Assembly: GCA_963833425.1 (NCBI GenBank)
Contig: CAWHXP010000015.1
Coordinates: 1-64,000 of the forward strand
Reading direction: 5' to 3'
DNA from: an uncultured Methanosarcinaceae archaeon
GTDB lineage: Archaea; Halobacteriota; Methanosarcinia; Methanosarcinales; Methanosarcinaceae
DNA: 64,000 nt
In this document: positions 40,429-59,515 of the stretch, in pieces
Position numbering within the stretch: position 1 is the first letter of the stretch
How the letters are laid out: each line of letters opens with the position of its first letter
The notes under the pieces: generated by a model
The model's database searches: none
What the model saw: only the letters and a program-made list of their open reading frames with translations
Told to the model about the DNA's origin: nothing
Program-made: the position numbers and the translations under genes

Positions 40429-41283
40429 GGTTCCGTTGCAAAAACTTCAAAAAAATATGTAAATCTATAAGTAATTAATAAAAATCAAAATATTTAAGGA
40501 AAATGTACTAACATTATAAAGCTATACCAAATAATTGATTAATGTATTTGACTTTATTAAGAGCAGAGTAGTTTAGATCGATTACTTGTCCTTTTTTGAT
40601 CATATTTATAGCTTCAATTCCTTTTAAAGTCTTATTAGCAGATTGAAAAGACTGAAATCCTAACATTGGATTAACAATTCTCTTTATAGATCTGTGATCT
40701 TGTTCTATAATATTATTCAAATAGTTGATTTGTCTAATTTCAACATTTTTAGACAATTTCTTTTCATTTTTCAGTTAATCTCTAGCAGGTGGATAAGCTG
40801 GATTCTTATCAACGGTTATTAATCTTGGAATTTGATTATGATTAAAACTTAAAGCTTTCTTAAAGAATCTCTTCGCTGCTTTTCTATTTAGTTTTGAACT
40901 TAACATGAAATCAATTGTATCTCCATTTGAGTCAACTGCTCGATAAAAATAGTCCCATTTACCTTTTACTTTGATATAGGTTTCATCAACTCTCCACGAA
41001 TAGTTTGTTAGCCTTAAATGTCTTCTTATCTTCTTTTCTATTTCAGGTGAATATTGATGTACCCATCTCATGATTGTTGTATGGTAGACTTTTACTCCCC
41101 TTTCTGCCATCATTTCCTTTAAATTTCTATAGCTTAATGGATATTTTAAGTACCATCTTACATTTAATAGGATAATTTCCCTTTCATAATGCTTCCATTT
41201 AAAGGAATTAGATAGCATGTTACTATCTTTGATTTTCTTTTTATTCTATTGTATCATTAAAAAGGATTTTTTGCAACGGAACC
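40429..41283 (-). mobile_element. Full-length IS6 with an in-frame TAA in the transposase
   Basis: Both IRs present; PPARD-TAA-LKNEKKL at 40775-40777. Confidence 0.93.
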
Positions 41284-41285
41284 TA

Positions 41286-41670
41286 TCATTTCTAGTCTAT
41301 GTAAATCAGTGCATGCCGATTGTTTGTCTGGCACGAGAGTAAACTAAAAACCAAGAGCAGAAGCTGTATTAGATCTCACAGATAAGTCTTCATCGGTAGT
41401 CGGTCTATGTAAGTCATTCCATGCACGTTGTTTATCTGGTACGTGAGAAAACGCAGAACCAAGAGCAGAAGTGCATTAAATTTCATCAAATTGTCTTCAT
41501 AAAGGATCAGGCCAACTAAATAGTTCCACACCTGGTGTTTATCTGGTACGTGAGCAATGCAGAACCAAAAGCCTAGGCTGCACCAAATCTCATAGTACTG
41601 CTTTCATCATTGGCCAGTCATGTAATCGTACCATGCCTGTTGTTTATCTGACATACAAGAACATCATTGT
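41286..41670 (-). pseudogene. Degenerate HEAT-repeat protein remnant (Methanosarcina type)
   Basis: Repeated, broken units SALGSAFSHVPDKQRAWNDLHR..TDEDLSVRS with ~115-bp periodicity (CCAGATAAACA / CTTGGTTCTGC). Confidence 0.7.
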
Positions 41671-41834
41671 TTCTCCAATCTGTCACAGATATTTTCCCGT
41701 TCAGAAACCAAGTTCAATGCCCGTTTGCAGCAAATCGGACCAGAGGCGCAGTGGACACCCCAAAAACTAGCATTAAAGCTTCATCATGCGCAAATACAAG
41801 CCTAATCCAGATTTTGTCGAAGATGTTCGCAAAA

Positions 41835-43118
41835 TCAAACGCGTTCAAGATCTCCACAACCTAGGGCATCGAGCGCCCGTTCAATAGAGCCAACTATAAA
41901 GTTCAAATCGTCTTTTGAAATGCAATAAGGCGGCAACAGATAGATTGTTTGCCCAATAGGACGCAACAACACACCCTGCGCCAGAAAATAGCGATAAAGC
42001 TTCGGCGCGACATCGGACAAATACCCTTGTCGAACATCGCATACATCAAGTGCCATAATCATGCCAATATGCCGCACATTTTCGACATCCTTGCGCGCCG
42101 CCAATCGCGGCAGCAATGCGGCTTGATGATCATGCAGCATCTTTATGCGCTCCATCACGTTATTTTTTTCCCATATATCTATCGAAGCGCAAGCTGCGGC
42201 GCAGGCCAGCGGATTTCCTGTAAAAGAAGTCGAATGGAAGAAAGTTTTGGCGCGGTCTGTGCTGTAAAATGTCTGATAAATATCTTCAGTCGCTAACGTC
42301 GCAGCCATAGGCAAACAACCGTTGGTAAGGCCTTTAGATAAACACACAATGTCCGGTTCTATATTCGCCTGTTCGCAGGCAAAGAGCGTCCCTGTGCGTC
42401 CCCATCCAGTCATGACCTCATCGGCAATGAAAATCACGCCGTAGCTTCGGCATAAAGCGTGCAGCGCGCGCAACGTTGCAGCACTGTAAATTCGCATTCC
42501 GGCAGCCCCAAGAACAAGTGGTTCGACAATCAATGCAGCGATATCGTTAGCTTGCGTTTTGAGCAGCTTCTCGAAGACCTCTACAGTCAAATGTTCGCGG
42601 CCAGTTTCAGGAAAAGGCAGACGATGCACATCGAACAGAAAATTTTCGTAGGGCGCGCTGAAAATGCCGCGCGAACCCACCGACATTGCACCGAACGTAT
42701 CGCCGTGGTACGCATTTTCAAGCGCTACAACGCCCCGCCGAGGTTTGTCTTTGTGCACCCAGTATCCCAACGCCATTTTCAAGGCAACTTCAACAGAAGT
42801 CGAACCGCTGTCGGAATAAAACACACGCGTCAAATTTGGCGGCGTGAGTCCCACCAATTTTTCCGCCAATCTTTCGGCGGGTTCATGTGTGAATCCGGCA
42901 AAGATAATCTGGTCGAGCTTTGTGGCCTGTTCCTGTACAGCCGCAACTATCTTTGGATGATTATGCCCGTGAATATTGACCCACCATGAAGAAATAGCGT
43001 CGATAATTCGACGTCCATCCTTGGCGTAAAGATAAGCACCCTCGGCGCGGTCAATAAAAACGGAATCCGGTAATAATGCATGTTGAGTAAAGGGATGCCA
43101 AATGGGGGAATGGATCAT
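41835..43118 (-). CDS. bioA: Adenosylmethionine--8-amino-7-oxononanoate transaminase
   Basis: PIWHPFTQH, DAISSWWV, DSGSTSVEVALKMA, YHGDTFGAMS, IADEVMTG, LSKGLT. Confidence 0.96.
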   Translation of the reverse strand: MIHSPIWHPFTQHALLPDSVFIDRAEGAYLYAKDGRRIIDAISSWWVNIHGHNHPKIVAAVQEQATKLDQIIFAGFTHEPAERLAEKLVGLTPPNLTRVFYSDSGSTSVEVALKMALGYWVHKDKPRRGVVALENAYHGDTFGAMSVGSRGIFSAPYENFLFDVHRLPFPETGREHLTVEVFEKLLKTQANDIAALIVEPLVLGAAGMRIYSAATLRALHALCRSYGVIFIADEVMTGWGRTGTLFACEQANIEPDIVCLSKGLTNGCLPMAATLATEDIYQTFYSTDRAKTFFHSTSFTGNPLACAAACASIDIWEKNNVMERIKMLHDHQAALLPRLAARKDVENVRHIGMIMALDVCDVRQGYLSDVAPKLYRYFLAQGVLLRPIGQTIYLLPPYCISKDDLNFIVGSIERALDALGCGDLERV

Positions 43119-43735
43119 GCAAAATCCTCTTTCCGAAATCTCTGAGCAAAAACGCCCATCAATGAGGCACGGTCGATAACATCCAGATGTGGCACATGAC
43201 CGAGAACAAGCGCTCCGGAGAAATCTGCGATCGTGCGCATAGTATCGGGATTATCCTCACCGATAAAAATCAACCCGTGCAAAGTCATGTAGCGTTGGCG
43301 CAAGGCCTCAACGGATAACAACGTATGATTGATCGTTCCCAACCCGGTCCGCGCACATAAAATAACCGGTGCAGCCCACGCCTTGAAAACGTCGACCTGT
43401 AATTTCCTTCGAGTCACCGGAACCATAAGCCCGCCAGCGCCTTCGACAATCAAAGTTCCGTCCGCCTTGGGCAAAGAGAGCGCGCCTATTTCAGCGCCAT
43501 CCAATTCGGCCGCAAGATGCGGCGAGAGCGGACGCGATAGAATATAGCGTTCCTGCAGAAATCGATCGTTGGACAATCCAGTCAAACCCTGTACGCGCTG
43601 TGTATCCGTGCCGTCTTCGATGCCGGATTGTATAGGTTTCCAGTAGTGAGCATCCAGGGCAACGGTCAGCATAGCGGCAACAGTAGTTTTGCCGATACCA
43701 GTATCTGTGCCGCTGATAATAAAGATCTTAGTCAT
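43115..43735 (-). CDS. bioD: Dethiobiotin synthase
   Basis: GTDTGIGKT, YWKPIQSG, SPHLAA, VEGAGG, LGTINHTLL. ATGA overlaps with both neighbours. Confidence 0.96.
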   Translation of the reverse strand: MTKIFIISGTDTGIGKTTVAAMLTVALDAHYWKPIQSGIEDGTDTQRVQGLTGLSNDRFLQERYILSRPLSPHLAAELDGAEIGALSLPKADGTLIVEGAGGLMVPVTRRKLQVDVFKAWAAPVILCARTGLGTINHTLLSVEALRQRYMTLHGLIFIGEDNPDTMRTIADFSGALVLGHVPHLDVIDRASLMGVFAQRFRKEDFA

Positions 43736-44844
43736 AGGCCGACACCAGATGGCAAAAGACTTTCCAAAGCCTGCGCAAAATTTTCGATATCTTGCGGCGT
43801 CAGCCCCACATTCAATGACAAGCGTAAACGAGCCGTACCTTCGGGAACGGCAGGGGGGCGTATTGCACGAATGTCGAATCCTTGCGCCTGTAGGTTCTTT
43901 GCCAGCTCGAAAGCTGCGGCATCTTCACCTATGATAATCGGTACAATCTGGCTTTTAACGGCAAGAGCTGAAATTCGTCGAGCCACAAGCGCTTTTAGCG
44001 CAGCAAGTCGTTTGCGCCGTTCAGGTTCATCGCGCACCAATTCTAACGCCCGTTTAACTAAAACAGCCTGCAAAGGCATTGGTGCAGTACTGTAGATAAA
44101 AGGTCGCGCTGCGTTGATGAGATAGTCGATGATATCCTCATTCGCACAAACAAGCGCGCCCGCTACTCCAAGGGCCTTACCGCAAGTATGCAGCGAAATC
44201 ATCCTGTCGTGTGAAAATCCTTCGGTTTCGCCGCGTCCAGTAGCACCGGAGACACCCGTCCCATGCGCTTCGTCAACGACCAGAATCGCATCATATTTTT
44301 CCGCAAGCATGAGAAGCTCGCGTACAGGTGCGATATCGCCGTCCATGCTATAAATAGATTCAACCAAAATCCATTTATTACATCCAGCTTCGACGGGCTT
44401 CTTAAGAGCATCTTCAAAAGCTTCTAGATTGTTATGAGAAATCTTGACCTTCATGCATTGCGCTGCATACAGCCCATCGCGCATACTTGCATGACACAAG
44501 GCATCGAAAATAGCAACATCGTGACGCGAGACTAGTGTTTTAATAAGTGCGTAATTTGCCTGAAATCCATTTGGAAAAAACAATGTGCGAGGGCATCCGT
44601 AATATGCGGCGGCAAAAAATTCAAGGTCTTCATGCGCTTGCCTGTTCCCACGTAAAAGCCTTGAGGCTGTCGCGCCGATTTCTATGCCGCCCTGCAACGC
44701 TTCAATTGCAGCCTGTCGTAAAGCTGGATGCTTAGAAAGGCCGAGATAATCATTAGACGAAAAATCAATTCCCTCAGGGAAGGAGAGCGAACGATAACGT
44801 CCCATGGCCTTCAGCCTGTCGAGATCAGGCGCGAAGTTTTTCAC
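43732..44844 (-). CDS. bioF: 8-amino-7-oxononanoate synthase
   Basis: DFSSNDYLGL, ASRLLRG, ESIYSMDGD, VDEAHGTG, HTCGKALG, AIRPPAVP. GTG at 44844 follows GAGGGG. Confidence 0.95.
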   Translation of the reverse strand: MKNFAPDLDRLKAMGRYRSLSFPEGIDFSSNDYLGLSKHPALRQAAIEALQGGIEIGATASRLLRGNRQAHEDLEFFAAAYYGCPRTLFFPNGFQANYALIKTLVSRHDVAIFDALCHASMRDGLYAAQCMKVKISHNNLEAFEDALKKPVEAGCNKWILVESIYSMDGDIAPVRELLMLAEKYDAILVVDEAHGTGVSGATGRGETEGFSHDRMISLHTCGKALGVAGALVCANEDIIDYLINAARPFIYSTAPMPLQAVLVKRALELVRDEPERRKRLAALKALVARRISALAVKSQIVPIIIGEDAAAFELAKNLQAQGFDIRAIRPPAVPEGTARLRLSLNVGLTPQDIENFAQALESLLPSGVGL

Positions 44845-45154
44845 AACGACACCCCTCGTCACAATTTTTATCCATCTCAGAAGCCTTCAATCTCAGATAC
44901 GCCATTAAACAAAGATCTTCATTGGTACCGGGATTAGGCATGGTCAGTAGCTTGTCGCCGGTAAAAATAGAATTGGCTCCCTTGATCAGAAACTCCACAG
45001 CTGTTAGGGTCTTTCTTAAACCTGCATTTCCATATACAAGTGTGATACGACCCTTTGGCAGGACATCATCAGTGATGTCATCAAAACCAGTAATACCAAT
45101 TGGATATTTTTCCAGATGTTTTTCTTTTAAAGTTGGGCTCTTTTGTTTAGTCAT
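44825..45154 (-). pseudogene. In-frame chimera: KaiC-like ATPase N-terminus fused to biotin synthase (BioB) C-terminus
   Basis: LEKYPIGITGFDDITDDVLPKGRITLVYGNAGLRKTLTAVEFLIKGA (KaiC-like, degenerate Walker A) runs directly into GANSIFTGDKLLTMPNPGTNED (BioB C-terminal motif). Confidence 0.85.
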
Positions 45155-45979
45155 CAAATACACCTTTTTAAATCTAGTAAGAAGCAGTAGTTTAAATAAG
45201 TATAAATTATCCAATTTATTTTGATCTCTTTAGCCCTTATTTTAGATCTTAATTAATATATTTGTTCTAATATTTTAAAAATATATATTTTTTGAACTGA
45301 TTATCGGAATACTCAATCAAGTCAATCCTTAACAGAAGCGACAATCAAAAGCGTTAATCTGTCCTTGACTCAGTAGTGAGTACCAATAACACTACAGATA
45401 AATCGATCTATTAGAGCTGTAAGAAGCCAGGATAAGAAAGCAGTAACATCGGATCAATGTCAAATATGACCAAATAGACATCAAAAATAACAATGAACTC
45501 CAACAGGCCAAAATAGACGATCTGAAAAATCAGATCCAAGCACTCTACTGCCATATAACATTAAGGACGAGAGATAGAAAAGCTAAATAAGAATATGCAC
45601 AAACCGCGTATTCAAAGTTCAATCCAGAAAAATAGCAGGCTAAATATTAAGCCGCTTGCGGATAATGTAGAAAAAAGTAATGTCAAGAGGATAGTATTTA
45701 GTGCCCTTCCCAGCTTTGATATATGTATAAGCATGTATAAAATCTAGATAATCGTTAATATAATCTGGAGTAAATTCCTTTAATTCTTTGTCTCCACAAC
45801 ATTCTATGAATGGTATAAGAGTGGTTCCCAAAGTTGCGATTGTTACTTCTATCAGTCCATCTCTCGGCACTTATTTAAATAATTTTTTAAAATTTTTGAA
45901 TTACTCATACTAACCTTAAAAGAATTAAATTCTAGATAAACAATATAGGTTTTTATGTTAGTTTACAATTGACTGAAGG

Positions 45980-46095: not shown

Positions 46096-47484
46096 TTATT
46101 TGCTGTCATTAAAATGAGATTTCCTATTCACCTGAATTTTATATTTCTCAGCGACTTCCTGGAAAATATCTACCATATAGTGAACTTTTTCCCAGGAAAG
46201 GCCGTATGTATTCAATTTCCACATGCGTGTAGCCCCCGCAAATTCTCCGACGATTCCCTTGCTTGAGAGTTCGTCTGAAAGGAAAAAACCTTTGCGCTTA
46301 TGGCCATGTGCCACGATATCGAAGTTACCACTTGTATCTATTTTTGAGAGTGTATGCTTGCGTGGGTACTCCGATGAAACCCTACTTCCTTCTATGGCAA
46401 GTAAACCATCAATCAGATAGTTTGACTTTTTCACCTCATCTCCCCAATTATGTACTCTCTTTCTTACAGTAGGAAAAGAAGCCATCATACCCATTAATGT
46501 CGAACCCATTAGTGTACAGCCGAGCATCTCAACTTCTTTGACGCCAAACTTACGTAGAGTAACATCCCCCACCATCTGAGTTGTACGAAATACCTTTGGA
46601 GCCCATTCATTGGTTGTTGCCAGCACTCCCGAAGGTGCGGGCGATGCCATGCTTTTGTGGCCGGAGCCTACGACAAAATCCGCGCCAATTTCCTTTCCAT
46701 TCACTGGCATGACACCAACAGTGTATGCACCATTATATAGGAAAGGAATATCATACTGATGTGCAACTTTTGCTATGTCTTTTACATCATGTTCGTTGGC
46801 ATACTGGTAATCAAAGTGGTCAATTATCACCAGTACAGGCAATTTACCTGTTTCCAGTTTGACTGCCTCAATTTTCTCGGCAGTGAGATCTGCAGTTACA
46901 ATATTGTGCTCGTTTACAGGCACTTCCTTAACTATCCCTCCGGCCTCTTCAACTGCCAAAAACTCTGTATAGTGGGCTAAAGCTGAAACTATGACAGAAT
47001 CATTTTTATTGACAATAGTAGATGCCACTGCCTGAAAACCGCGCCTTGCTCCAGGAACTACACGCGCAACATCCATGTTAAGGAAGCTAGCGAGTTGTTC
47101 ATGGAACGGGCCAATTGGCGGAGTTCTGATTGTGTCTAACCTAAAGGGCTTGCTGCAGGCATCACAGACAGAATATCCATCACCATATGCTATGAGTGCT
47201 TTTCGTGCTTCTGGGGTAAGCCTTCCAGCTGCCTGAATTGGCTGTATGTTGATGTACATTTCTTCTCTGGATCTAATGTTAATATTACCAGCTATCTTTC
47301 TAACTTGCGGAGTTCCAGTACTGTTTTCGATATCATCCAAAATTTTTCTTACCTTGTTTACACCTTCCTTAATAGAGTTTTCTTCTTCCGGACTAGTGAC
47401 ATTTGGAAGTGATTGTCTAAAGATCTCTCGAACATCTTCAAGTGCAAAAAGAGCCTCAAAAGTCTTTTGAATTCTTATATCCAT
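46096..47484 (-). CDS. pscS: O-phosphoseryl-tRNA:Cys-tRNA synthase (SepCysS), long form with ~70-aa N-terminal extension
   Basis: INIQPIQAAGRLT, YGDGYSVCDAC, AHYT, NGAYTVG, GSGHKSMA (PLP Lys), MLGCT. Confidence 0.93.
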   Translation of the reverse strand: MDIRIQKTFEALFALEDVREIFRQSLPNVTSPEEENSIKEGVNKVRKILDDIENSTGTPQVRKIAGNINIRSREEMYINIQPIQAAGRLTPEARKALIAYGDGYSVCDACSKPFRLDTIRTPPIGPFHEQLASFLNMDVARVVPGARRGFQAVASTIVNKNDSVIVSALAHYTEFLAVEEAGGIVKEVPVNEHNIVTADLTAEKIEAVKLETGKLPVLVIIDHFDYQYANEHDVKDIAKVAHQYDIPFLYNGAYTVGVMPVNGKEIGADFVVGSGHKSMASPAPSGVLATTNEWAPKVFRTTQMVGDVTLRKFGVKEVEMLGCTLMGSTLMGMMASFPTVRKRVHNWGDEVKKSNYLIDGLLAIEGSRVSSEYPRKHTLSKIDTSGNFDIVAHGHKRKGFFLSDELSSKGIVGEFAGATRMWKLNTYGLSWEKVHYMVDIFQEVAEKYKIQVNRKSHFNDSK

Positions 47485-48124: not shown

Positions 48125-48346
48125 CATTTTGAAACTATTTTGTAAAAATATATCGATTCAAAAATGATAAGAAAAGGTTTCAATAAATTAAAGAATTAAT
48201 CTCAACAAGTTAGTCTCAACTGGCTGGAGAAGACTGCATTCTTCTTAAAGAGCAAAATAAGTAAGAGTTTATCATGAGTAAAAACTATTACTAAGAGATT
48301 TAAACTCATCAATACTCAAATGCATAGGAGCTTATCGAAATTCTCT
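48125..48346 (-). mobile_element. IS5 5' remnant
   Basis: Reverse complement starts AGAGAATTTCGATAAGCTCC and continues with decayed transposase N-terminal codons. Confidence 0.7.
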
Positions 48347-53904: not shown

Positions 53905-54758
53905 GGTTCCGTTGCAAAAATTTCGAAATAAGCATGTAAATCTATAAGTGATTAATAAAAATCAAAATATTCAAGGAAAATGTACTAACATTATAAAACT
54001 ATATCAAACAATTGATTAATGTATTTGACTTCATTAAGAACAGAGTAATTTAGATCATTTACTTGTCCTTTTTTGATCATATTTATAGCTTCAATTCCTT
54101 TTAAAGTCTTATTAGCAGATCGAAAAGACTGAAATCCTAACATTGGATTAACGATTCTCTTTATAGATCTGTGATCTTGTTCTATAATGTTATTCAAATA
54201 CTTGACTTGTCTAATGCCTACTTTTTTAGACAATTTCTTTTCATTTTTCAGTTAATCTCTAGCAGGTGGATAAGCTGGATTCTTATCAACGGTTATTAAT
54301 CTTGGAATTTGATTATGATTAAAACTTAAAGCTTTCTTAAAGAATCTCTTCGCTGCTTTTCTATTTCGTTTTGAACTTAACATGAAATCAATTGTATCTC
54401 CATTTGAGTCAACTGCTCGATAAAAATAGTCCCATTTACCTTTTACTTTGATATAGGTTTCATCAACTCTCCACGAATAGTTTGTTAGCCTTAAATGTCT
54501 TCTTATCTTCTTTTCTATTTCAGGTGAATATTGATGTACCGATCTCATGATTGTCGTATGGTAGACTTTTACTCCCCTTTCTATCATCATTTCCTTTAAA
54601 TTTCTATAGCTTAATGGATATTTTAAGTACCATCTTACATTTAATAGGATAATTTCCCCTTCATAATGCTTCCATTTAAAGGAATTAGATAGCAGTTACT
54701 ATCTTTGATTTTCTTTTTATTCTATTTATCATTAGAAAGGATTTTTTGCAACGGAACT
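53905..54758 (-). mobile_element. Full-length IS6 with the same in-frame TAA and a lost start codon
   Basis: Both IRs present; PPARD-TAA at 54252-54254. Confidence 0.92.
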
Positions 54759-55887: not shown

Positions 55888-56621
55888 GTAAGATGGTACT
55901 TAAAATATCCATTGAGCCATAGAAATTTAAAGGAAATGATGGCAGAAAGAGGAATAAAAGTCAACCATACAACAATCATAGGATAGGTACATCAATATTT
56001 CCCTGAAATAGAAAAGAAGATAAGAAGACATTTAAGGCTAACAAACTATTCGTGGAGAGTTGATGAAATCTATATCAAAGTAAAAGGTAAATGGGACTAT
56101 TTTTATCGAGCAGTTGACTCAAATGGAGATACAATTGATTTCATGTTAAGTTCAAAACGAAATAGAAAAGCAGCGAAGAGATTCTTTAAGAAAGCTTTAA
56201 GTTTTAATCATAATCAAATTCCAAGATTAATAACCGTTGATAAGAATCCAGCTTATCCACCTGCTAGAGATTAACTGAAAAATGAAAAGAAATTGTCTAA
56301 AAAAGTAGGCATTAGACAAGTCAAGTATTTGAATAACATTATAGAACAAGATCACAGATCTATAAAGAGAATCGTTAATCCAATGTTAGGATTTCAGTCT
56401 TTTCGATCTGCTAATAAGACTTTAAAAGGAATTGAAGCTATAAATATGATCAAAAAAGGACAAGTAAATGATCTAAATTACTCTGTTCTTAATGAAGTCA
56501 AATACATTAATCAATTGTTTGATATAGTTTTATAATGTTAGTACATTTTCCTTGAATATTTTGATTTTTATTAATCACTTATAGATTTACATGCTTATTT
56601 CGAAATTTTTGCAACGGAACC
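55888..56621 (+). mobile_element. 5'-truncated IS6, inverted near-twin of 53905-54758, same in-frame TAA
   Basis: Starts at VRWYLKYP codons; GCTAGAGATTAACTGAAA at ~56263-56280; right IR ends at 56621. Confidence 0.92.
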
Positions 56622-56652
56622 AAAAAAAGTATATTAAACTAAAATAGGTAAG

Positions 56653-58385: not shown

Positions 58386-59515
58386 AGATAATTTCTATAA
58401 GTTTCTATGAATCGAGTATTGGATAGTTAAAATATCTTAACAATAGTTTTTATTCATCCAAAATTTTACTGGTTTTGCTCTTAAAGAGGAATGTAAGCGT
58501 CTTCAACCCGTTGAAGATAAACTTGCTGAAATTGATTCTTAATAGATTGCAAATCTTTTCGTATCATTTTTGAGTCCATATAGTTTCACAAAACAGTTTT
58601 CTGAGGAAAACCCGAAACTGACGTAATCTTTAAGTCAAAATGCTTATTTTACTTCAATATTACGGATCTTTCAGACTCTGAATTTGGGAAACAGGGTATT
58701 GGTCGAATTTCTTTCAGGAAATTTCTCAATTTTTCTTAGTCATGCTAGACGGTTCCACGGTCTAATCATTCAGAAAAGAATTATTGATAACTGAAATAAG
58801 AAGAAATATGACACCAGTTGAAAGTTAATCTAATTGTTTCGTTTTGGAAAAAGAAGACCATTCAGGATGCTACTTTTGTCCATTCAGATCCAGGACATAC
58901 AAAAGCAGAGAGATGAGGCAAAAACAAGGGGAAGCAGATATGGAACCTTGATTAAAAAAGGGTGATAAGTCGCACTTTGAATATAAACTTCATAGAATTA
59001 ATATATGGGGATTCTGAGCTGATCAAAAATTCAAAATAATGATTGTAGTACTTCATAATTCTCAGGTAAATTTATCAGAACAAAAAAGAAATGTTTGCAG
59101 GGAGAGAGGATACTTTGGAGCAAAACCAAAACTCATGATGCAACTATGAAAAGAGCAGTATGAGAACATCTATGGGAATTAGTGATATCTCAAGAAGCAA
59201 GAGAATAAGTTCAAAAAGATCTCAATAGTAATGAGTTTATACAGTAACTAAAAAGATATTCAAAGCAGGAAAATTTTTCTCACTACCGTTTGCAAATCTG
59301 AAGATTCTGTGTAAAGCTTTTGTTATAAATCTGTCTAATGAACCAGAAAAGAAAAAAATTGATTCAAATACTGAAATCAACGAGCAAAATTTTGATAGGG
59401 TTCGCGATAAGAAAAAAATTAGAGGTAAATCGGAATTCTATCCCGATTTTCACTAGCAACATACATATACAATTTAGAAATATTGACGAAATTTAGGAGT
59501 TAATCAAAATTTTCC
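58386..59515 (+). mobile_element. Heavily decayed full-length IS5 copy
   Basis: Eroded IRs; TGFALKEECKRL..DKLAEIDS and CAGGATGCTACTTTTGTCCATTCAGATCCAGGACAT segments match 4133-5266. Confidence 0.85.

Follow-up and report, generated by a model that had tools for sequence, protein, structure and literature searches.

A bioF-bioD-bioA block of alphaproteobacterial type in a Methanosarcina clade, probably complemented by a Bacillota-type bioB

Contig C15 of a Methanosarcina genome begins with the stretch of 64,000 nucleotides that is called the window in the following, and this stretch carries a block of three genes for late steps of biotin synthesis, bioF, bioD and bioA, preceded by the stump of a bioB gene. 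A DNA search covering 59 species genomes from this genus detected the block in six, with 87-90% nucleotide identity: G000, which is the genome holding the window, and its relatives G019, G055, G064, G065 and G067 (contigs are numbered with C). The best explanation overall, and probably the right one, is that the ancestor of these six species gained a bio segment from an alphaproteobacterium, kept bioF, bioD and bioA of it, and that these genes pair with a bioB of Bacillota type that lies elsewhere in the genome. The assembly of G000 comprises 4.07 Mb in 21 contigs with 35.8% G+C and is about 80% complete.

All three genes lie on the minus strand according to the list of open reading frames (ORFs), and the bioF stop and bioD start, like the bioD stop and bioA start, overlap in an ATGA. 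Positions, intactness and coupling of the genes are as described in the first-pass annotation, an earlier note made from the sequence of the window. BioA reaches 583.5 bits on NF004624 (cut-off 494) and 552.3 on TIGR00508 (cut-off 405), and BioD 118.6 bits on TIGR00347 (cut-off 83.3) and 198.9 on PF13500. The top family of BioF is TIGR00858, with glycine C-acetyltransferase trailing by about 100 bits; the score of 350.1 bits is under the cut-off of 426.45. As the BioFs of bio operons that served as controls are also below this cut-off (Mesorhizobium 348.6, Afipia 332.2, metagenome contig L132 367.3; E. coli reaches 496.7), the shortfall appears to be a property of the whole BioF subtype. Also the position of the gene is that of a bio-operon bioF, with the ATGA overlap to bioD and with bio-operon BioFs as neighbours in the tree.

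In global alignments, K262, D233, E199, Y137, W45 and R386 of BioA correspond to K274, D245, E211, Y144, W52 and R391 of the E. coli enzyme, and E. coli Y17 is replaced by F10; BioF H124, S172, D197, H200, T226 and K229 correspond to E. coli H133, S179, D204, H207, T233 and K236. We take K274 to be the lysine that forms the Schiff base with pyridoxal phosphate (PLP) and the other E. coli BioA residues to have active-site roles, and likewise K236 to be the PLP lysine of BioF and H133, H207, D204, S179 and T233 to be catalytic. BioD shows a P-loop GTDTGIGKT as well as KPIQSG and VEGAG, and the signature motifs of this family are presumably GTDTxxGKT, KPxxSG and xEGAGG. The motifs LHTCGKALG and SPIWHPFTQHA, which the first-pass annotation had quoted as reminiscent of Alphaproteobacteria, are found in the translations, and the G+C enrichment that had drawn attention to the block holds as well: its 49.6% compare with a genome mean of 35.8% (SD 4.2%; 20,034 windows of 3146 nt), which is between the 95th (42.4%) and the 99th (50.9%) percentiles and makes it about the 17th highest distinct region in the genome.

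The nearest relatives of the block outside the genus are of bacterial type. A scan with one genome per species gave, within the best 80 loci, one locus from Methanosarcinaceae (91%) and 79 bacterial loci with 53-60% BioA identity, 70 of which come under alphaproteobacterial names (taxon names are taken from the record titles of metagenome-assembled genomes, MAGs, and of isolates). Of the 79 bacterial loci, 73 have bioF, bioD and bioA in a colinear arrangement, and 47 encode a BioB tail directly upstream, so the order bioB-F-D-A is indeed common in these related alphaproteobacterial loci, in line with the earlier note. A search of 5.8 billion proteins revealed closer BioA relatives with 66-83% identity. 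Proteins at 90-94% are those of the Methanosarcina clade itself, one protein at 83% has a low-G+C-like composition, and unnamed proteins at 81-83% and 76-81% have a bacterial-like amino-acid composition. The named relatives are an "Alphaproteobacteria bacterium" MAG (75%), a cluster with proteins from "Xanthobacteraceae bacterium" MAGs (75%), and Asticcacaulis (71% and 68%). Three metagenome contigs with 62-63% G+C (L131, L132, L134) contain bioF-bioD-bioA with 69-75% identity for all three proteins.

All trees were quick searches with SH-aLRT values (a likelihood-ratio branch test) as the only support. In the BioA tree, the Methanosarcina proteins are sister to two of the unnamed proteins, P0007 and P0008 (support 99), inside a clade of 30 rows (96) that includes named Alphaproteobacteria. 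BioD of Methanosarcina is nested in L131, L132 and L134 (99-100), and BioF is found within the same three contigs, in a group of seven rows with a support of 99 and an inner branch of 90. A first BioA tree, made with the relatives at 53-60%, had set the clade apart as the sister group of the sampled Alphaproteobacteria as a whole; this placement was an artefact of how the peptide-pattern scan sampled, and it was undone by the closer relatives at 66-83%. Nesting in the trees of the donor group, patchy occurrence in the recipients and a deviant composition, by which a horizontally transferred block is recognized, are all found here. The alphaproteobacterial-type bacterial origin proposed in the first-pass annotation stands with these trees and with the names of the relatives.

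The first-pass annotation had concluded that the organism could make only dethiobiotin and would need another enzyme for sulfur insertion, or a partner organism. This does not hold, as an intact true bioB is encoded on another contig (G000:C5:238411-239370, L001), whose 319-residue product scores 390 bits on TIGR00433 (cut-off 225) and contains the motif CSENCKFC. The gene has 37% G+C. It is distinct from pylB, since PylB reaches only 62 bits on the bioB model. The nearest named relatives of this BioB are all Bacillota (64-73%), Heliophilum, Sporomusa, Desulfonispora and Clostridium among them, which suggests a second inter-domain acquisition. The late pathway would be a mosaic of two bacterial donor groups, the donor of bioB being judged by the nearest named relatives. 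A Bacillota-type bioB was found in 8 of the 59 genomes of the genus, including all six that bear the block (in G055 as a fragment); in G051 and G068 it lies beside the biotin import gene bioY and bioFDA is absent, and the alanyl-tRNA synthetase (AlaRS) of these two genomes, at 83%, is no nearer to the clade than that of other species. The possibility that the C5 gene is the missing head of the block bioB was considered and discarded, as the tail aligns with only 35% over 43 residues and the relatives are Bacillota. A second bioB copy in G000 (C14:15716-16623, L002, L003) is decayed, with many stops. It had been considered as the alphaproteobacterial bioB and turned out to be of the Bacillota type, as a copy that has diverged to 56-63% identity.

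Among the other genes that the first-pass annotation had named as worth looking for, birA is intact and adjoins intact pycB and pycA, with pycB encoding the only biotinyl-domain protein found in the genome. The gene bioY, which is free of stops in 53 of the 59 genomes of the genus, is present in G000 as a pseudogene with 6 stops and several indels (C11:35346-35768, L211; 83% identity to the intact bioY of G065), and the organism therefore appears to depend on synthesis. A search of the genome for bioW gave none, with the same search finding the controls from B. subtilis and M. jannaschii. For BioZ no homologue was detected in this 80%-complete genome, and for BioC only weak matches of generic methyltransferases, none of them convincing; BioH was not searched for.

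The three genes have been under purifying selection over most of the history of the clade. This follows from the low pairwise ratios of nonsynonymous to synonymous substitution rates (dN/dS), which with 0.095-0.176 for bioF, 0.134-0.244 for bioD and 0.112-0.128 for bioA are like those of AlaRS (0.103-0.217). All three genes are intact only in G000, G064 and G065. The statement that the genes had stayed intact while their neighbours decayed is correct for G000 and has to be softened for the clade, since three of the six genomes have lesions in one or two of the bio genes, which means that either some lineages can do without these genes or the lesions are sequencing errors of MAGs. In two metatranscriptome runs there are contigs that extend over bioA and bioD and over most of bioF, which is a weak hint of expression; positions 44825-45106 have no such cover, and this gap carries no meaning.

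It might be argued that the block is a decaying relic that is now neutral, and that the organisms meet their needs by importing biotin or dethiobiotin. Three of six genomes have a stop or frameshift in one or more of the three genes, bioB is already gone from the block, the region is full of insertion sequence (IS) copies and broken genes, and pimelate-forming genes were not found in the search. However, dN/dS values of 0.10-0.24 are on par with those of AlaRS, the catalytic residues are all kept, and G000 has three intact genes while its gene for import is a pseudogene with multiple lesions. Also the lesions are all different among the three genomes, which are all draft MAGs. A neutral relic is on these grounds rather unlikely, and a retained set of probably functional genes is the preferred reading.

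As to the age of the transfer, the genomes whose AlaRS is 92-94% identical to that of G000 are exactly those that bear the block. In 52 other genomes with a match the AlaRS identity is 81-87%, and one genome has no match, which means that the block is present in six of six genomes inside the AlaRS-defined clade and in none of 53 outside. Synonymous divergence (dS) between G000 and the others is 0.29-0.43 for the bio genes and 0.26-0.33 for AlaRS; the bio genes are equal to or somewhat above AlaRS, and genome pairs are ranked broadly alike, with G000 as the most distant. The G+C content of third codon positions (GC3) amounts to 0.44-0.54 for the block, against 0.72-0.81 for the closest bacterial contigs and 0.37-0.41 for genes of the host, and the DNA of the block has largely drifted towards host composition. 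As the block is shared throughout the clade, with a dS like that of AlaRS and a GC3 that has moved most of the way to that of the host, the transfer predates the six-species clade, and the block was present in its ancestor. The "recent" transfer of the first-pass annotation has to be given up for this reason.

The alternative to a single ancestral insertion is that the block was passed on later among these Methanosarcina species, perhaps by way of IS6 elements. Such a spread could account for flanks that are common only to G000 and G065, the surroundings being others in G019, G064, G067 and G055, for the sharp block end 11-13 nt past bioA that is common to all, and for an IS6 copy 600 nt away. 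It has little probability, as the occurrence matches the AlaRS clade exactly and pairwise dS of the bio genes is not below that of AlaRS, with a similar ranking and G000 as the most distant, while the host flanks have been rearranged by repeats genome-wide. Terminal repeats or a second IS6 element bracketing the block are not seen in the annotations, and no repeat search was run. The clade genomes are heavily rearranged. An empty site was sought in the relatives and none was found, and the flanks of the window are scattered over other contigs of G019 because of repeats. Host genes flanking the block have 85-90% identity between G000 and G019. Window positions 58386-59328 and 48132-48346 recur at 70-80% on dozens of G019 contigs and look like insertion sequences, and ends of G019 contigs match short repeats, 92-94% identical, at 53905-54137, 54565-54757 and 56415-56622. 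A single insertion before the divergence of the six species remains the preferred reading.

The block is truly embedded in a Methanosarcina chromosome, as the first-pass annotation had assumed, and both of its junctions are bridged independently. One contig of 3547 nt, which comes from a public DNA run and has about 95% identity to the window, covers positions 41600-45093 and with that both junctions; by its identity it stems from another strain or species. G065 has both junctions in common with the window, and the block was also found in a metagenome contig of 70.8 kb. Among public sequencing runs, the best share of sampled words was 0.21 and none reached half; runs with members of the clade carry habitat labels that are mostly peat or soil and are unverified. 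A chimera of assembly or binning, with a bacterial fragment misjoined into an archaeal contig, has to be considered as three contig ends of the same assembly carry suspicious bacterial-type DNA with 60-72% G+C, but it is refuted for practical purposes and retains only a vanishing probability: the bio block lies inside its contig and is flanked by host DNA at both ends, it occurs in six species genomes and the 70.8-kb contig, its junctions are bridged by the contig of an independent run, and its composition is intermediate (49.6% G+C, GC3 0.44-0.54) and not bacterial-like (62% G+C, GC3 0.72-0.81). The bio block is unlike the high-G+C ends in all respects tested. These ends of 7-16 kb (C15:183000-198816, L252; C12:1-12000, L253; C3:617000-624181, L254) probably stem from contamination or from chimeric joins at the ends of the contigs, and strain-specific acquisitions are less likely. 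The C15 end codes for a sigma-54-dependent response regulator, a TadA/CpaF-like ATPase and a MinD/CpaE-like protein, and only its first approximately 380 nt are matched in five relatives from the clade.

That the block instead represents old archaeal bio genes, inherited vertically and lost by most Methanosarcina, can be dismissed with equal confidence: some other families of Methanosarcinales do have bioF and bioD, and 26 of 151 genomes of the order (G000 included) are above the bioD cut-off, but these native genes have only 32-37% identity and are on the opposite side of the trees, a joint clade of Methanosarcina and native archaeal BioF is rejected by an approximately unbiased (AU) test (p 0.0068, log-likelihood difference 45), none of 47 other sampled genomes of the family reaches the bioD cut-off, 53 of the 59 genomes of the genus have no block, and its G+C is foreign. 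A true bioA was found in just 1 of 250 other genomes sampled across the phylum. Of the phylogenies that the first-pass annotation had suggested, those of BioF and BioD gave no grouping with native archaeal homologs. The native bioF-bioD pairs (loci L106-L115, families f4, f6 and f2) have bioD scores of 159-189 bits and no bioA inside 1.5-kb flanks, and in the phylum-wide search one genome of genus g4 had no bioA at the level of TIGR00508.

The boundaries of the block can be delimited from alignments (Table 1). Of bioB only TIGR00433 positions 250-305 are left, with 22-24 bits; the radical-SAM core CxxxCxxC is absent, and the gene is a relic whose 3' end falls within the start of bioF. For bioF there is an alternative in-frame GTG start at 44844 that is preceded by GAGGGG. 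The bioB tail is longer in G064 and G019, with up to 62 codons, and G064 (locus L021) has about 15 extra BioB codons and another upstream flank. In the window, the ORF 45214..44825 is a chimera that joins a KaiC N-terminus (residues 30-82) in frame with the BioB C-terminus, and G065 carries the identical arrangement with the frame open. Over 194 nt, the kaiC head shares 79% identity with a paralogue on G000:C5, and 5' ends of the kaiC family are recurrent across many genomes of the genus. The match of the paralogue extends to 44975, and the match of the block in other genomes starts at 45001 (G064, G055) or 44981 (G019, G067). The upstream junction is placed in this stretch of 20-27 nt because the homologies of kaiC and of the block both cover it, and the stretch resembles both genes because KaiC EFL(I/V)KGA and BioB AFLAGA coincide there by chance.

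Table 1. Features of the bio block and its surroundings in the window.
Feature	Position	Strand	Details
IS6-family transposase, split in two ORFs	40514..41218	-	NF033587 200.5 bits; PF13610 halves
Stop-ridden HEAT-repeat-like fragments, decayed host flank	41344..41713	-	judged by eye; no Pfam match
Downstream block end, 11-13 nt beyond bioA stop	41822..41834	.	common to all six genomes
bioA, adenosylmethionine-8-amino-7-oxononanoate transaminase	41835..43118	-	427 aa, intact
bioD, dethiobiotin synthase	43115..43735	-	206 aa, intact
bioF, 8-amino-7-oxononanoate synthase	43732..44862	-	376 aa, start GTG 44862
bioB relic, last ~51 codons, GANSIFTGDKLLT...EKLRA*	44825..44980	-	TIGR00433 E 2.1e-5, BATS domain
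Upstream junction, ~20-27 nt microhomology (kaiC paralogue and bioB tail)	44975..45001	.	alignments
5' part of host kaiC-family gene, ATG 45154	44981..45154	-	PRK09302 E 1.3e-13
SepCysS, methanogen marker upstream	46096..47484	-	NF006810 620 bits; 90% nucleotide identity to G019

The bioB tail, the KaiC fragment and the IS6 boundary that the first-pass annotation had noted are confirmed by profile matches; with regard to the flanking relics, KaiC and IS6 are borne out, and the HEAT repeats remain a reading by eye. The upstream flank is of methanogen type because SepCysS is located there. In the lineage of G000 and G065, the kaiC head probably supplies a promoter and a translation start and leader for the block. 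The Walker A motif of the fused KaiC head is degenerate in the window (GNAGLRKT) and canonical in G065 (GSAGSGKT), and its decay would fit a KaiC fragment that is kept for promoter and leader rather than for an ATPase function. A scan for sigma-70 promoters and terminators found 4 promoter-like sites where 7.2 were expected, and this is uninformative because the host is an archaeon.

The history that we consider probable would begin with the acquisition of a bioB-bioF-bioD-bioA segment from an alphaproteobacterium by the ancestor of the clade. The incoming bioB may have been redundant, or was lost by deletion, so that a C-terminal stump was left, and bioF, bioD and bioA would have been retained by purifying selection, as a unit with coupled translation. 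In the lineage of G000 and G065, a deletion at the 20-27 nt of microhomology would have fused the 5' end of kaiC in frame to the bioB stump, and the resulting KaiC'-'BioB fusion would provide an archaeal promoter and a translated leader running into bioF. BioF is expected to form 8-amino-7-oxononanoate (KAPA) from a pimeloyl thioester, BioA would convert it to 7,8-diaminononanoate (DAPA), and BioD would close the ring to dethiobiotin. The separate, unlinked BioB of Bacillota type would then insert sulfur, and BirA would load the biotin onto PycAB, which would make G000 a candidate for biotin prototrophy, provided that the enzymes are active in the archaeal host. The substrate of BioF would be pimeloyl-CoA or another thioester, because archaea have no known acyl carrier protein and bioZ has not been kept, and pimeloyl-CoA is the most likely one. 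Our guess for its source would be an oxidative decarboxylation of 2-oxosuberate, the precursor of coenzyme B. In a literature search on 2-oxosuberate and biotin, the word "ketosuberate" occurred in no paper among the matches listed. That all parts hold together, with a change from importer to producer, alphaproteobacterial bioFDA joined by a bioB from Bacillota, promoter wiring through KaiC'-'BioB and an archaeal pimeloyl-CoA that does not depend on acyl carrier protein, is a tentative proposal and on balance rather doubtful.

Several observations weigh against this history. G064 and G065 have an intact bioY along with an intact bio block, and there is no clean either/or of import and synthesis. 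The searches for bioW, BioZ and BioC did not reveal the source of the pimeloyl moiety. The bacterial source of P0007 and P0008 at 81-83% is judged solely from amino-acid composition, which is a weak criterion, and the nearest bacterial contigs have no bioB directly upstream of bioF; in L134 it lies downstream on the opposite strand. Apart from G000 and G065, which agree, the six genomes have the block in different surroundings. Codon 40 of bioD is a TAA in G067, frameshifts are present in bioD and bioA of G019, and in G055 bioF is broken. Also the contigs from RNA runs are no proof of transcription, as such libraries can contain DNA.

The system can be compared with several known ones. The alphaproteobacterial biotin operon, according to a more recent article in which Sullivan et al. 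2001 is cited, is a bioBFDA(Z) cluster in, for example, Mesorhizobium, Agrobacterium and Brucella (PMC7645780). The block resembles it in gene order, in overlapping reading frames and in a BioF subtype below the TIGR00858 cut-off. It differs in being located on an archaeal chromosome, with bioB being a stump of about 50 codons on a kaiC head, with no bioZ, and with G+C and third-position G+C that have drifted towards the host. According to Chow et al. 2018 (PMC6138646), the bioW-bioF-bioA-bioD-bioB genes of Methanococcales were the one complete set for biotin that archaea had among the KEGG genomes of that survey, and none of 29 Methanosarcinales is listed with bioW, bioF, bioA or bioD and one with bioB. 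Like the Methanococcales, the clade described here consists of methanogens whose genes cover the four late steps of the biotin pathway, but no bioW was found, and the genes have a recent bacterial ancestry from two donor groups and do not form a clustered archaeal set. With the native bioF-bioD pairs of Methanosarcinales the block shares the order of archaea and two enzyme families, whereas identities of 32-37%, the opposite side of the tree and the absence of a nearby bioA from the native loci set them apart. For Methanosarcinaceae of arthropod guts, a study from 2024 reports that biotin synthesis is absent and a transporter compensates (PMC11362671).

Transfer from bacteria to Methanosarcina as such is well known. 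According to Garushyants et al. 2015 (PMC4455057), Firmicutes and Proteobacteria are the main bacterial donors and whole operons are rarely transferred; the word "biotin" is absent from the main text of that paper. The donor groups and the transfer of metabolic enzymes are alike in the present case, and the difference from the transfers described there is that three coupled genes arrived together with the stump of a fourth. A literature search, with subscription journals outside its coverage, gave no report of a bioFDA transfer to Methanosarcina. The enzymes are ordinary, and the case is a useful instance and not a new type of system. What is unusual about it is a clean and datable cross-domain move of a multi-gene operon, a pathway that appears to have been put together from two bacterial donor groups, and an upstream junction that is resolved to 20-27 nt of microhomology yielding an in-frame fusion of host and foreign sequence.

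A clade with the late biotin pathway would alter what is predicted about the dependence on vitamins within methane-producing communities. The finding also sharpens the question of how the pimeloyl moiety originates, as no bioW was found in the genome and, according to the 2018 survey, archaea have no acyl carrier protein that is known (PMC6138646). If the joint proposal is true, the organism of the window, which has no functional bioY, would be a natural system in which an archaeal route to pimelate could be found.

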